From positions 1 through 64,000 of IMG/VR virus record IMGVR_UViG_3300006028_000011: a stretch of DNA of 64,000 bases; one strand, 5' to 3'. The stretch comes from a virus. Under the pieces are notes generated by a model. The model was not told the DNA's origin. It worked only from the letters and a program-made list of their open reading frames with translations, and did no database searches. Positions 51,210 to 56,201 of the stretch are shown here, in pieces. The position numbers were made by a program, and so were the translations under genes. The number at the start of each line of letters is the position of its first letter. The first letter of the stretch is position 1.

Positions 51210-51788
51210 TCAGACGCAGACCTTCCGGTAGACGCAGTCGAGGCACTTCGTCGCCGGCGCCCGCCCCGGCATGTCCTCCGTGCCGACCACGGCCTGCATG
51301 TCGGCCACGAGGTTCCGCACGATCCGCTTGTCGGCCTCCCTGATCGCCACCTCGCGGACGACGTCGCCGCCCAGATAGTGCAGGTAGCCGCGGTTAACCA
51401 ACCGGCCGTGCCGCTCCTCGAGGAGCAGGGCGTAGGCCGCGAGCTGCACCAGCTGCTCGGGCCACGGGCGCGCGGGCGGCTCGCCCATCTTCACCTCGTA
51501 CACCGCGAGGTCCCCATCCGCGGCGACCAGGGCGTCGACCTTGCCGCGGAGCCGGAGCCGCTCCGACGACAGCTCAGCGGACATCAACTTCGAGCGGGCC
51601 CGCACGCTGGCGCCCTCCCGCCATCGGTTCTGCTCCCTGGCCGCCCAGCGGTCGTGCTGCTCGCGGCCGTGCTCGGTCTTCACCGTCCCGCGCTGCTTCA
51701 TGCCGAGCACGTACGCGAACCACGTGATCCGGGCGCAGTAGCGGTGGTTCATCAGGTCTCCGACCGACAGGTAGCCGTGGCGATCCAC
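51210..51788 (-). CDS. cas4: CRISPR-associated Cas4
   Basis: YCAR, GKVD, YEVK, QLAAYALLLE, KCLDCVYRKVC (four Fe-S Cys). Confidence 0.93.
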   Translation of the reverse strand: MDRHGYLSVGDLMNHRYCARITWFAYVLGMKQRGTVKTEHGREQHDRWAAREQNRWREGASVRARSKLMSAELSSERLRLRGKVDALVAADGDLAVYEVKMGEPPARPWPEQLVQLAAYALLLEERHGRLVNRGYLHYLGGDVVREVAIREADKRIVRNLVADMQAVVGTEDMPGRAPATKCLDCVYRKVCV

Positions 51789-52090
51789 TACAGCACCTCG
51801 AAGCGATCACGCCGATGGTCGGGGAAGTGCGCCTGGCGGCCGAGGAAGCGGGCGCCCCCGAAGCAGCCGTCGCACATCGGCAGGACGTAGACGCGGTCCG
51901 ACTCGCGGGCGCGCGGGTCCCTGGCGAACAGGCCCTCGATGCGGATCTGGAGCATCTCCCTCCGGTTCCGGGTCAGGTCACCCGCGAACGCCGAGTACTG
52001 CACGCGCTCCAGGCCGAAGTCGAGCAGGAACTCCGCGGTCCGGACGCGCAGGCCGTTGTCGCCGATGTCGTAGATCACGAGCAACCTCAT
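51788..52090 (-). CDS. cas2: CRISPR-associated Cas2
   Basis: MRLLVIYDI...GLERVQYSAF...DRVYVLPMC. Confidence 0.95.
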   Translation of the reverse strand: MRLLVIYDIGDNGLRVRTAEFLLDFGLERVQYSAFAGDLTRNRREMLQIRIEGLFARDPRARESDRVYVLPMCDGCFGGARFLGRQAHFPDHRRDRFEVL

Positions 52091-52106
52091 CCGCCGACGG
52101 GGCCGG

Positions 52107-53231: not shown

Positions 53232-54353
53232 GTGGCAGCCATGCTCGCGCTCCGACCGCTGCAACTGGCGTGGCCAGGCGAGCCGGGCATGGGTGACTTC
53301 GTGGCATCCACGCTCGCGCTCCGTCGGCCGCTGCAACTGGCACGACGGCGCAAGAGAGGATCGAGAGTTGGTGGCATCCACGCTCGCGCTCCGTCGGCCG
53401 CTGCAACAGCGCACCCGCGACTGGGAAGAGAAGTAGGCCGAGTGGCATCCACGCTCGCGCTCCGTCGGCCGCTGCAACCACTCGTCCCGGGCCGGAACGA
53501 CCAGTCATTCACCGTGGCATCCACGCTCGCGCTCCGTCGGCCGCTGCAACCATGCTGTGCCGATCACTCAAGGAGGAGGTGATGCCGTGGCATCCACGCT
53601 CGCGCTCCGTCGGCCGCTGCAACACAGTCGCAGGGCGCCGTAGCTCCCACTGACCATCCCGTGGCATCCACGCTCGCGCTCCGTCGGCCGCTGCAACATA
53701 TTGGGATCTTGGGAGCAGCCTTATTGCCATCGGTGGCATCCACGCTCGCGCTCCGTCGGCCGCTGCAACCGCCTCGCCGGGAGCACGAAGCCACGGCCGA
53801 TTCTCGTGGCATCCACGCTCGCGCTCCGTCGGCCGCTGCAACGCATAGAGTTCAGACAGATGCCGCCGCAATCACCGTCGTGGCATCCACGCTCGCGCTC
53901 CGTCGGCCGCTGCAACCCGCTTGCAGAAGATCATCGACGCCGACCTCAGGTTGTGGCATCCACGCTCGCGCTCCGTCGGCCGCTGCAACTGTGCAGTACC
54001 CTCCGCAGCTTACCGCTCAGTCTACCGGTGGCATCCACGCTCGCGCTCCGTCGGCCGCTGCAACTGACAAAGCGGCGATGATAGCCGCGATAACCGCAGG
54101 TGGCATCCACGCTCGCGCTCCGTCGGCCGCTGCAACCCGCGCGGTTGGCTGCTCGGACGCGGGGCCTCATCCGTGGCATCCACGCTCGCGCTCCGTCGGC
54201 CGCTGCAACCGCCTCGGCGCTGGTGCTCACGGTGATGACCTCTCTGTGGCATCCACGCTCGCGCTCCGTCGGCCGCTGCAACCCGGCAGTGGCAGGCGCC
54301 ATGCGAAGCCATCTTCGTGGCATCCACGCTCGCGCTCCGTCGGCCGCTGCAAC
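53232..54353 (-). CRISPR. CRISPR array: 15 identical 37-nt repeats plus 1 degenerate trailer repeat, 15 spacers of 33-38 nt
   Basis: Minus-strand repeat GTTGCAGCGGCCGACGGAGCGCGAGCGTGGATGCCAC. Perfect copies start at 53301, 53371, 53442, 53514, 53587, 53661, 53733, 53806, 53880, 53953, 54028, 54100, 54173, 54246 and 54317. The degenerate copy at 53232-53265 suggests minus-strand orientation. Confidence 0.98.
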
Positions 54354-54518
54354 CGCAATCGCCAACTCGTAAGCGCCCACAGCAGGCGCTCGGCGTAGAC
54401 TGAATCCGTCATAGAGCCGATGAGCCCGAGTTGCGTCGACGTGGTCAACCTCCCCCTCGCGGTGGCAAGTGAGAGGTCGTCCGCGAGTACAGCAGACGTC
54501 GGGGCGCAGGTGTGGTAT
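54354..54518 (-). promoter_or_regulatory. CRISPR leader region
   Basis: 165-bp gap between the effector stop and the non-degenerate end of the array. Confidence 0.6.
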
Positions 54519-56201
54519 TCAGGCCACGGCATGGGGCACACCCCTACCGTTAGCGCCTGACGGACCTGCCCGGCCCGGCTCCTCCAGTGGACGCTGGAGG
54601 ACGTTTCGCGCCGAGTTGACCGTCCTCGGCGCGGTGTAACCGCAGGCCGGGCAACGGTGAACGCGGAGCGATATGGGCTTTGGGACGAGCGTGCCGCACC
54701 GGGCGCATTCCTGCGTCGTGTGTGGTGCCGGCTTCCTCGCGACTCGACCACCAGCATCTGCCGCTTTGTAGTCGAGGGCGGCGAAGAACGCGCCCCAAGC
54801 TGCGTCGAGTTCCCCTCTGTTCCTCCTCCTCTGTACGTGTGCCGGAAGGTCCGGCTGTGGATCCGGGTTGTGCTCCGGAGCCACCGTCAACTGCTTGATG
54901 TCGAGCGCTTCGACGGAGATCTCCTCGAACTGGCGCACCAGGGCCCGCGACACCTTGTGTCGGTGGTCCCCGCGGGCGCTGCGCTCGCGCTCCTTGGCGC
55001 GGGCGTACGCCTGCACCGCCTTCTTCCGGCGGTTGCTGTGGGCGTGGCCGGCCCTGGTCCGCCGGGCGACCCTGCGCTGCGTGCGCGCGACCCGCCTGGC
55101 GTGCCGCATGCCAGCATTGCTGCCCTCGATGAGCACGGCGGAGCCGGCCTCGTCAGGCACCGGCTCGGCGATGTCGTGGGCGGCCTGGAGGCGCCTGCGG
55201 ATCCTCGCGCACGCCCTGTCGAGCTCTCCGAGTCGATGGAGGGACCGACGGTAGAGCTTGGTCAGCTCCTTCGGGCATCGGCGCGGCCGGGCTGGATCCA
55301 GGCCTCGCGCCCGGCAGTGCGCCAGCACCTCCGAGAGCTGCGCGGCCTCGCGTTCCAGCTCCTCCAGCCGCCGGCAGTCCGAGGGGTCGGTGGCCATCCG
55401 GCGCAGATCCGCGACGAGCGCCGCGGCCGCGCTGGTGTCAGCCGTGAAGGCCGTGCCCCAGGTGACCACGCCCATGTCCAGCCCGACTGCCGGACGGCCG
55501 CTGGCGGCTGGCTCGACGCTCGGCATCTCCATGGCGATCGAGACGAACCAGCGCTTCCCGGACCGGCGCACGATGACGCTCTTCGGGATGGCGCCCATGG
55601 GGATGCGGCGGTGCTCGAGGATGCGCAGCTCGCCGAGCCCGGTGAGGCGGAGATCGCCGTTGTGGTACGTGCCAGCGCCGACGGTCTTGCCCCGGCCGAG
55701 CGATTCGCCGGTCTCGGGGTCGAAGCGCTCCTTCGACGGGCTGGTGAGGCCGAACGTCAGCGAGTCGTACCTGTGCTCGGAGCGCCAGCGCGGATACCCG
55801 GCCTTCTGACCCTTGGTCGCCCGCTGGAAGAACGCGGCCATGGACCGCTCGAGGCGCGCCAGGACCTCGTGCTGGACGAGAGCGGGCATGCCCGGCGGCA
55901 GGAGCTCGGCGTGCTCGCGGCGGAACTCCGTGAGCAGCTTGCCCTGGTCGTTCTTGGAGATGTGGGCGCCGCCGCCGCCGCGATAGACCCACCTGCCGGG
56001 CGGGTCGCTCTTTTTGCGGGGGGCGGCGTCGCCGTCCCAGAAGCGGAAGCCTCGGCCGTGCGCGTCATGGCGGCCCCACGCGTTCTTGCGGTGCTCGAGG
56101 GCCGCGTTGTAGAGCTGGCTCGCGAAGCGCAGCCAGCTCGTCAGGGCCTCGGCCTGCTCTGGCGTCGGGTAGGCGCGGTACTTGTACGTCCGAACCGTCA
56201 C
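54519..56201 (-). CDS. cas12: Compact type V CRISPR effector (TnpB-like Cas12, Cas12f/Cas14 size class, ~560 aa)
   Basis: RTYKYRAYPT N-terminus, GYPRWR, RuvC-I VGLDMG, RuvC-II ISVEAL, Zn ribbon CARC...CPAC, RuvC-III-like PRTVNSARNV; adjacent to the array and cas1-2-4; GTG 56201 overlaps the upstream TGA. Confidence 0.88.
   Translation of the reverse strand: MTVRTYKYRAYPTPEQAEALTSWLRFASQLYNAALEHRKNAWGRHDAHGRGFRFWDGDAAPRKKSDPPGRWVYRGGGGAHISKNDQGKLLTEFRREHAELLPPGMPALVQHEVLARLERSMAAFFQRATKGQKAGYPRWRSEHRYDSLTFGLTSPSKERFDPETGESLGRGKTVGAGTYHNGDLRLTGLGELRILEHRRIPMGAIPKSVIVRRSGKRWFVSIAMEMPSVEPAASGRPAVGLDMGVVTWGTAFTADTSAAAALVADLRRMATDPSDCRRLEELEREAAQLSEVLAHCRARGLDPARPRRCPKELTKLYRRSLHRLGELDRACARIRRRLQAAHDIAEPVPDEAGSAVLIEGSNAGMRHARRVARTQRRVARRTRAGHAHSNRRKKAVQAYARAKERERSARGDHRHKVSRALVRQFEEISVEALDIKQLTVAPEHNPDPQPDLPAHVQRRRNRGELDAAWGAFFAALDYKAADAGGRVARKPAPHTTQECARCGTLVPKPISLRVHRCPACGYTAPRTVNSARNVLQRPLEEPGRAGPSGANGRGVPHAVA

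Follow-up and report, generated by a model that had tools for sequence, protein, structure and literature searches.

A phage-borne type V CRISPR-Cas locus with a TnpB-proximal effector, an altered RuvC-III site and its own adaptation genes

The stretch of viral DNA analyzed here (the window) comprises positions 1 to 64,000 of IMG/VR record IMGVR_UViG_3300006028_000011, and all coordinates refer to it unless stated otherwise. On its minus strand lies a CRISPR-Cas locus in the order effector gene, 165-nt gap, CRISPR array, cas1, cas2, cas4 and a G+C-rich hairpin (Table 1). With a single TnpB-like, split-RuvC effector beside a CRISPR array, the locus is type V (class 2). A preliminary description of the window, made from its letters and open reading frames (ORFs), had reported an effector of ~560 aa, the gap and the three adaptation genes on this strand, and each was recovered at the same position. 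The evidence set out below makes it very probable that the locus is real, phage-borne and type V, and that it belongs to an uncharacterized, TnpB-proximal clade.

The exact repeats of the array, identical to the letter in all 15 copies, have plus-strand starts from 53301 to 54317, and the spacers are unique. The 15 spacers counted in the preliminary description stand if the degenerate repeat at the distal end is included, and do not by exact repeats alone, as 15 repeats enclose 14 spacers. Because the decayed repeats lie on the cas1 side, the leader would be at the effector side and transcription would run on the minus strand; the array of a related locus (L003, described below) has the same polarity, with degenerate repeats at its far end. 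Tandem Repeats Finder found no comparable second array elsewhere in the window. The effector most likely starts at a GTG codon (56201-56199) that overlaps the TGA stop of an upstream methyltransferase gene (GTGA) and has GGAGG 6 to 10 nt on its 5′ side; the resulting 560-aa product equals the database entry P0001 in size. Effector and methyltransferase are translationally coupled and probably cotranscribed, and the hairpin after cas4 is likely the end of the transcription unit. A promoter and terminator scan was uninformative in DNA of such high G+C content and did not have that hairpin among its calls. All three adaptation proteins scored above the curated NCBIfam cut-offs, in keeping with the earlier impression of intact genes (Cas1: TIGR00287, 221.3 bits, cut-off 71.7, and Pfam Cas_Cas1, 220.7 bits; Cas2: TIGR01573, 41.5 bits, cut-off 24.5; Cas4: TIGR00372, 101.6 bits, cut-off 65). 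The Cas4 translation has one N-terminal and three C-terminal cysteines and what we take to be the D...ExK motifs. None of 10 other large unannotated ORFs of the genome matched PADLOC, which, for those 10 ORFs, agrees with the earlier statement that the window has no cas3, cas7, cas10 or cas9.

Table 1. Positions of the locus components and associated features in the 64,000-nt window
Feature	Position	Strand	Remarks
SAM-dependent methyltransferase	56198-56860	-	Stop overlaps effector start (GTGA)
Type V effector	54519-56201	-	560 aa; full ORF 54519-56351
Candidate tracrRNA / omega-RNA-like scaffold	54441-54580	-	Overlaps last ~60 nt of effector ORF; conserved over four loci
Anti-repeat (putative)	54503-54518	-	Complementary to 3′ half of own repeat; immediately after effector stop
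12-bp hairpin	54443-54482	-	Conserved with compensatory changes; follows anti-repeat
Gap, effector stop to first repeat	54354-54518	-	165 nt; putative leader role in spacer integration; holds part of candidate scaffold
CRISPR array	53301-54353	-	15 identical 37-nt repeats, 14 spacers of 33-38 nt
Distal array end	53196-53300	-	15th spacer 53266-53300; degenerate 34-nt repeat 53232-53265; spacerless repeat remnant 53196-53225
cas1	52107-53108	-	331-333 aa
cas2	51788-52090	-	100 aa from ATG at 52090; TAG stop overlaps cas4 GTG by one base
cas4	51210-51788	-	192 aa
9-bp G+C-rich hairpin	51176-51202	-	Directly after cas4 stop; without T tract; read from sequence
N6/N4 DNA methylase	22113-23717	-	Encoded by the phage
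C5 cytosine methylase	26610-27893	-	Encoded by the phage

That the locus lies within phage genes, as the preliminary description had it, is borne out by the full record, which has 82,238 bp, is classed with direct terminal repeats and reaches a CheckV completeness of 100%. Besides N6/N4 and C5 DNA methylases, its gene products include a major head protein like gp23, a portal like that of T4, the large terminase (TerL), a tyrosine integrase, a tape measure protein and an endolysin, and megablast against 50,697 deposited phages gave 0 matches to the genome. As the record was assembled from a metagenome, the locus might belong to a bacterial chromosome and have entered through an assembly chimera or host contamination. 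In a 2017 rhizosphere run, positions 50500-53337 and 54325-57500 are matched with 0 differences by Logan contigs that reach past both ends, whereas the array interior (~53338-54324) is spanned by no Logan contig, and the run may be the source sample and hence not independent evidence. Against a chimera also stand an identical 90-bp repeat at both ends, which closes the record, the even G+C content (0.69-0.71 across the locus, 0.68-0.75 along the genome), and the phage regulators, lysis genes and tail genes that flank the locus on both sides. Moreover, in a 2025 soil run from a different study, two contigs of 151 letters each agreed fully with the effector gene (within 54934-55239), from which it follows that the phage or a close relative recurs in soil. 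A bacterial origin of the locus is thus very unlikely. Two further observations concern the wider window: ARAGORN called a tRNA-like gene with an undetermined, two-base "anticodon" at 49664-49747 (minus strand), which could represent a decayed tRNA or what is left of an attachment site, and a perfect 19-nt tandem duplication (2.0-2.3 copies) lies at 43973-44018 in an otherwise nonrepetitive region.

The effector is a TnpB-like core with helical insertions, and its Pfam domains are HTH_OrfB_IS605, OrfB_IS605 and a Cas12f1-like TNB zinc ribbon. Among NCBIfam models it passes guided_TnpB (NF040570; 171 bits, cut-off 100) and falls below the narrower TnpB model NF038281 (109 bits, cut-off 425), C2c8 (V-U2, NF038192; 70.6 bits, cut-off 350) and Cas12f2 (17.2 bits, cut-off 450), with IS607 TnpB likewise far below cut-off; the PADLOC profile Cas12u1 (Cas12m) gave 56.8 bits, too little to place it in Cas12m. 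The PADLOC "Cas12f" profile PDLC01691 scored P0001 at 357 bits, other clade members at 157-221 and three ordinary TnpBs at 204-207. Because it scores ordinary TnpBs equally, this profile is generic and conveys no specific Cas12f identity; its seed may contain a sequence near-identical to P0001, which would explain the lone 357-bit score. The effector is therefore not specifically a Cas12f, the family with which the preliminary description had compared the locus. Similarly, the PADLOC profile Cas12u4 scored clade members at 128-231 bits and ordinary TnpBs as high or higher (174-217 bits), so no specific Cas12n membership follows from it. Among PDB chains, the single effector sequence matched TnpB-type chains best (≤56 bits). 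A six-sequence family profile matched RdCas12n (9j09) at 118.6 bits, in the C-terminal half only, then ISDra2 TnpB (95 bits), Fanzor2 (79 bits), UnCas12m4a (61 bits) and Cas12m2 (26 bits), with best scores of 44-54 bits for Cas12f, LaTranC and Cas12p; matches to PDB Cas12f chains (21-54 bits) were confined to the zinc ribbon. An AlphaFold2 model from an 81-sequence alignment (predicted local distance difference test score [pLDDT] 88.5, predicted template modeling score [pTM] 0.83) had as its nearest solved folds in Foldseek the ISDra2 and ISFba1 TnpBs (ISDra2: E-value 4e-15, template modeling score by target 0.77-0.79), followed by Fanzor2, Cas12p, Cas12m2 and Cas12f, and the nearest ESM Atlas clusters were ordinary TnpBs, commonly of Actinomycetota. 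By these comparisons, the effector has no demonstrated specific match to a characterized Cas12 subtype.

Relatives of the effector are few. A word-indexed search of 5.8 billion clusters returned 85 matches, only five of which (P0002-P0006) scored 288-571 bits, the next reaching 167 bits, and 1.84 billion representatives, searched exhaustively with a profile, gave 27,715 matches, eight of them above 350 bits (P0001, P0002, P0004, P0005, P0006 and P0086 at 586-818 bits; P0087 and P0088 at 352-374 bits) and the rest at ≤292 bits. All clade members are metagenomic and none carries an NCBI name; searches of IMG/VR and of the GTDB species genomes with peptide patterns found no effector relatives. 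A quick maximum-likelihood tree (50 rows) had a clade of 10 that includes the effector of locus L002, supported by a Shimodaira-Hasegawa-like approximate likelihood ratio test (SH-aLRT) value of 99 and nested in a larger clade (SH-aLRT 99) of TnpB-like proteins of ~380-470 aa; within the clade of 10, L002 is the first branch and P0001 is sister to P0002 (99). Profile searches, fold comparison, ESM Atlas neighbors and tree thus concur with the earlier suggestion of a TnpB-proximal effector in a small lineage of its own, nested inside the TnpBs. A three-helix insertion of ~100 aa after RuvC-I (55130-56080, minus strand; residues ~256-342) is present in P0001, P0002 and P0003 only and absent from P0004-P0006, P0086-P0088 and L002, a distribution that identifies it as a recent domain accretion within the clade.

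DNA of relatives was read at four JGI/NCBI metagenome loci (L002-L005). L003 holds a 545-aa effector followed after 85 nt by eight repeats and further decayed ones; directly behind this array lies a 488-aa tyrosine integrase (L003 positions 3486-4952, plus strand), which places the effector-array unit at the edge of an integrative element. L004 holds a 617-aa effector and an array that reaches the contig end, and L002 a 470-aa effector and four repeats, with a helix-turn-helix (HTH) protein and two N6/N4 DNA methylases as neighbors. The fourth, L005, encodes an ordinary Asp-bearing TnpB-like relative, and an array was absent from the 800 bp read. All four clade loci read (the phage, L002, L003 and L004) therefore have an array downstream of the effector, with 37-nt repeats, spacers of 33-38 nt, an effector-to-array spacing of ~85-210 nt and common repeat ends, and the earlier proviso that close homologues might never be array-linked does not apply. 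The flanks of L002-L004 share nothing with the phage beyond weak integrase, methylase and HTH similarity, and the effector-array unit has therefore moved between elements. A pattern of the repeat consensus had 0 matches in IMG/VR and four single matches in GTDB genomes (~2 expected by chance, estimated by hand); the one read, from a Micrarchaeota genome, lay inside a 1902-aa ORF without an array.

At the 3′ end of the effector gene lies a candidate scaffold RNA with a putative anti-repeat, proposed here as a trans-activating CRISPR RNA (tracrRNA). The anti-repeat pairs with the repeat at 11 of 16 positions in the phage, 15 of 16 in L003, 13 of 16 in L004 and, with the register shifted by one, 15 of 17 in L002. 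Across an alignment of the four loci 78.7% of cells were paired, against 36-55% with the partners slid by 1-3 columns, and seven pairs had changed on both sides, against 1-4 when slid; none of 500 shuffles matched the pairing or covariation score, the structure having been derived from the same four sequences on which the pairs were counted. The 161-nt scaffold region folds better than shuffled sequences (z = −2.64; 2 of 200 shuffles equal). Residues 544-560 of the effector are predicted to be disordered (pLDDT below 50), between loci the DNA 3′ of the RuvC-III motif is more conserved than coding for a disordered tail would need, and in L003 and L004 the effector ORF continues through the scaffold region. 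Rfam yielded no family, and the 20 nt after the end of the candidate scaffold, examined as a possible fixed guide, match nothing else in the genome. A whole-genome duplex scan (16,436 windows; mean −35.3, standard deviation 5.8) had its best window outside the array, at −57.2 kcal/mol, inside the effector gene, a result not judged meaningful. Support for a tracrRNA is moderate over the four loci and weak in the phage locus by itself. A comparable layout is described in the available part of a preprint on Cas12n, where the tracrRNA lies within a dispensable disordered ORF tail with the anti-repeat at its end; that text cites an RNA-splitting origin, in which a transposon RNA gave rise to tracrRNA and CRISPR RNA (crRNA) (bioRxiv 10.64898/2026.03.27.714800). 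By analogy, the arrangement of the phage locus fits such an origin.

An overlap of structured RNA with the gene's 3′ end is equally a property of omega-RNAs, and the closest relatives in sequence and fold are TnpBs; the effector could accordingly be an ordinary IS605/IS607 TnpB with its omega-RNA that came to lie next to an orphan array and an adaptation module to which it has no relation. Against this reading, the phage genome has no Y1 TnpA (Y1_Tnp) and a single TnpB-like gene, transposon ends not having been searched for. The recurrence of effector-array order, 37-nt repeats and repeat ends at four loci with otherwise unrelated flanks also speaks against it, as does an anti-repeat that covaries with the repeat between loci. 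We regard a fortuitous neighborhood as the least probable of the alternatives considered.

The effector-array unit and the adaptation module appear to have separate histories. In the stretches fetched from the three array-linked relatives (13.8, 12.5 and 4.3 kb) cas1, cas2 and cas4 are absent, and the module therefore looks like a late capture behind a pre-existing effector-tracrRNA-array unit. The Cas1 has 23 related clusters that share 64-82% identity with it and come from metagenomes only. P0242 among them (73% identity) is listed on a Logan contig of 26,203 bp, as is the sister effector P0002, which is thus probably also accompanied by this Cas1, the co-location being read from the equal contig size only. 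Other Cas1 relatives lie on contigs of 156, 35 and 22 kb that have no counterpart among the effector matches, which suggests that the Cas1 lineage probably also serves other systems. Searches with the single protein and with a 24-sequence alignment found none of this lineage in IMG/VR, and the closest Cas1 proteins had ≤36.6% identity in isolate plasmids and ≤28.2% in phages.

The catalytic site of the effector is altered. RuvC-I D242 and RuvC-II E431 are kept, and the RuvC-III Asp is replaced by T527, leaving the D-E-D triad incomplete. A full triad is not needed for type V membership, Cas12k and Cas12m being likewise inactive. The 81-sequence alignment has the RuvC-I Asp and RuvC-II Glu in every row and the RuvC-III Asp in 73 of 75 TnpB relatives, whereas the six family members have Thr (five) or Gln (one). 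The same holds in the subclade formed by P0001-P0006, P0086 and P0087 (Thr in seven of eight, Gln in one), while P0088 is irregular at the site and the basal, array-linked L002 effector keeps the Asp (the Arg-Asp of the DRDxN motif). As L002 is basal, array-linked and Asp-bearing, loss of the third carboxylate is derived, conserved and later than array capture. When conserved polar or acidic residues specific to the subclade were scanned for, no convincing substitute carboxylate emerged: the only subclade-specific acidic residue was D56, which lies in a low-confidence insert, and D265 occurs in the Asp-bearing L002 protein too.

Since every subclade member has Thr or Gln at this position and a compensating acid is not evident, binding without the usual double-strand cleavage is the most likely mode of action, at odds that we place close to, though just short of, even. 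Cas12m and a phage "dCas14" offer precedents for binding alone (PMC11656645, PMC7162821). An enzyme with a rearranged RuvC site, in which Thr527, another residue, a metal-bound water or a neighboring side chain takes the place of the Asp, might instead cut or nick invading DNA as other miniature Cas12 and TranC enzymes do. The conservation of the Thr would suit such an enzyme, as would a full adaptation module, which befits a target-destroying immune role. On the other hand, the Gln in one member indicates that the position is not tied to a single chemistry, neither D56 nor D265 offers a persuasive replacement, and in the accessible accounts of tested Cas12s the loss of a single RuvC carboxylate abolishes cleavage (e.g., D-to-A changes in Cas12r and Cas-delta). 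Cleavage by a rearranged site is therefore considered the less probable of the two, if one to be taken seriously. The missing residue could also mark a decaying, nonfunctional remnant, an inactivated effector beside a disused array, and the lack of a known target for any spacer would agree with this. Decay is, however, hard to reconcile with four intact ORFs overlapping in a coupled arrangement, with 15 letter-perfect repeats and unique spacers, or with a substitution that persists in eight members diverged to 38-59% identity while other motifs are conserved, a pattern indicative of purifying selection; it is accordingly an improbable explanation. The preliminary description had called the system self-sufficient, which stands by gene content (effector, array, cas1-cas2-cas4) and is doubtful for interference, given the RuvC-III replacement.

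Comparison with described systems places the locus in a known kind, the TnpB-derived miniature type V systems of mobile elements. With ISDra2-type ("typical," DRDxN) TnpB the effector shares domain order, fold and a structured RNA over the gene's 3′ end; it differs from the TnpB of IS200/IS605 in lacking TnpA or further copies, in taking its guide from a CRISPR array, in the lost RuvC-III Asp and in being ~150 aa larger through helical and REC/WED insertions. With Cas12f/Cas14 (type V-F) it shares small size, the zinc-ribbon TNB domain and a likely tracrRNA requirement, and some archaeal Cas12f/Cas14 loci also have 37-nt repeats and cas1-cas2-cas4; the Cas12f2 score and the restriction of PDB Cas12f matches to the zinc ribbon set it apart. 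Cas12m (type V-M), which is guided by crRNA only, is just weakly similar in sequence. It is nonetheless the nearest functional parallel to the proposed model, as a small type V effector borne by mobile genetic elements that binds and silences DNA without cutting, according to the available parts of two reports (PMC11656645, PMC10691335); in the first it is an inactivated effector for silencing that plasmids and some prophages carry, and V-M loci are reported with arrays and no other cas genes, whereas the phage locus has cas1-cas2-cas4. Cas12n (type V-N, formerly V-U4) is likewise miniature and TnpB-proximal with a downstream array and provides the best PDB match to the family profile, over the C-terminal half only; its disordered ORF tail overlapping the tracrRNA would have a counterpart in the predicted tail and candidate scaffold of the phage locus. 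It is itself an active nuclease, and in the portions of the literature available we found no adaptation module reported for it.

The closest parallels in setting are Cas12r of Thermus Lalka phages, CauTranC9 and the "dCas14" of huge phages, each a phage-borne, TnpB-derived effector followed by a short array. A role in conflict between mobile genetic elements has been proposed for this group, and one huge-phage Cas14 lacks a catalytic residue; a 2026 preprint on temperate Thermus phages reports, in the part available, that Cas12r spacers target rival integrative elements. Cas12r belongs, however, to another TnpB branch and is an active, tracr-free nuclease with 29-bp repeats and no adaptation genes, and as far as the accessible texts go none of the three carries Cas1, Cas2 or Cas4, whereas the phage locus carries all three. 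In the parts available, a survey of phage-borne V-F and V-U variants describes nearly all as without Cas1/2/4 and includes one "dCas14" (PMC7162821), and another lists 299 CRISPR-Cas systems in 741,692 phage genomes, 250 of them without Cas1/2/4 and only one with a Cas12, a Cas12a (PMC12676247). A third counts ~50 independent origins of Cas12 from TnpB, with 40 candidate branches (V-U6 to V-U45), 15 of them without an NCBI member; it reports that adaptation genes were gained independently at least 12 times, that catalytic sites are altered in several branches and that arrays lie almost always downstream of cas12 (PMC10691335). The order of effector and array, which had been thought unusual, is by that account the rule for TnpB-derived Cas12; what is less usual is only that cas1-cas2-cas4 follow the array, a placement in line with late addition. 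The clade, its conserved RuvC-III Thr and the pairing of such an effector with its own cas1-cas2-cas4 on a complete temperate phage appear to be new, as no description of the clade or of an altered-site type V effector with its own cas1-cas2-cas4 on a phage was found in the literature consulted. Since ~50 Cas12 origins are already cataloged and the survey's V-U6 to V-U45 list or the TranC clade list may include the clade, the claim of novelty is restricted to that of a variant within the known kind.

Taken as a whole, the data are best explained, with a probability of roughly 60%, by a TnpB-derived type V locus of a complete temperate siphovirus-like phage with a high-G+C soil bacterium as host, whose effector most likely binds or silences DNA. 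The comparison with relatives shows descent of the effector from a "typical" (DRDxN-type) TnpB, within a very small clade already settled beside an array in the order effector, ~85-210 nt, 37-nt repeats; cas1-cas2-cas4 appear to have been added later, behind the array, in the phage and probably also in its closest relative, P0002. A single operon would run from the upstream methyltransferase through effector and array to cas1-cas2-cas4. The structured RNA at the effector's 3′ end, a tracrRNA derived from the ancestral omega-RNA, would pair with the 3′ half of each repeat, and effector, tracrRNA and crRNA would together recognize DNA, while Cas1-Cas2 with Cas4 would insert spacers of 33-38 nt at the effector-proximal end. 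Once bound, the effector would keep competing phages or plasmids from being transcribed or replicated during the prophage state, as Cas12m does, and the kept D242 and E431 may have a part in RNA processing or in residual nicking.

Several results weigh against this explanation. No protospacer was found for any spacer in all searches made: there was no match in the phage's own genome at ≤6 mismatches, only chance-level matches of the whole array among 50,697 phage and 72,556 plasmid records (E = 0.3), no match of exact 24-mers of two of the 15 spacers in IMG/VR and no cross-targeting among the four loci at ≤7 mismatches. As to the tracrRNA, the anti-repeat of the phage locus does not exceed chance (its best ungapped score is reached by 141 of 200 shuffles), the duplex scan gave no outlier in the 165-nt gap, no RNA runs are listed among the sequencing runs that hold the sequence, and the shared derivation of the four-locus structure and its pair counts tells in the same direction. 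As to the adaptation module, P0002 and Cas1 are linked by equal contig size only. As to binding without cleavage, 15 of 15 aligned sequences have the counterparts of D242 and E431, as expected if some kind of catalysis is retained; conserved RuvC-II and RuvC-III alterations are held often to retain activity, possibly with rearranged sites, in the accessible part of PMC10691335; and no characterized precedent of a binding-only effector with its own adaptation module was found in the literature.

A bolder version can be offered tentatively, and we think it unlikely to hold in full: an adaptive but cleavage-dead type V system, in which Cas1-Cas2-Cas4 would load spacers for a bind-only, TnpB-grade effector and the prophage would gain a heritable and reversible means to silence plasmids, rival phages or even genes of its host. 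It would be the first natural "adaptive CRISPR interference (CRISPRi)" and an early step from TnpB, with an omega-RNA split into tracrRNA and crRNA. If the effector does bind without cutting, spacer acquisition would be joined to nondestructive targeting on a phage, a combination found in no characterized system; V-M, V-K and phage "dCas14" are all without adaptation genes in the source texts available. The question would then be how a silencing system selects, and profits from, new spacers. As a natural 560-aa DNA binder with its own guide RNAs, the effector may also offer a compact scaffold for repression or base editing. For the family itself, the clade lays out steps from TnpB to Cas12, from an effector of 470 aa whose triad is intact and whose array has four repeats, through loss of the third carboxylate and helical insertions, to capture of cas1-cas2-cas4; and since the conserved scaffold RNA resembles a split omega-RNA throughout the clade, models of RNA splitting and domain accretion may be testable within one small family.

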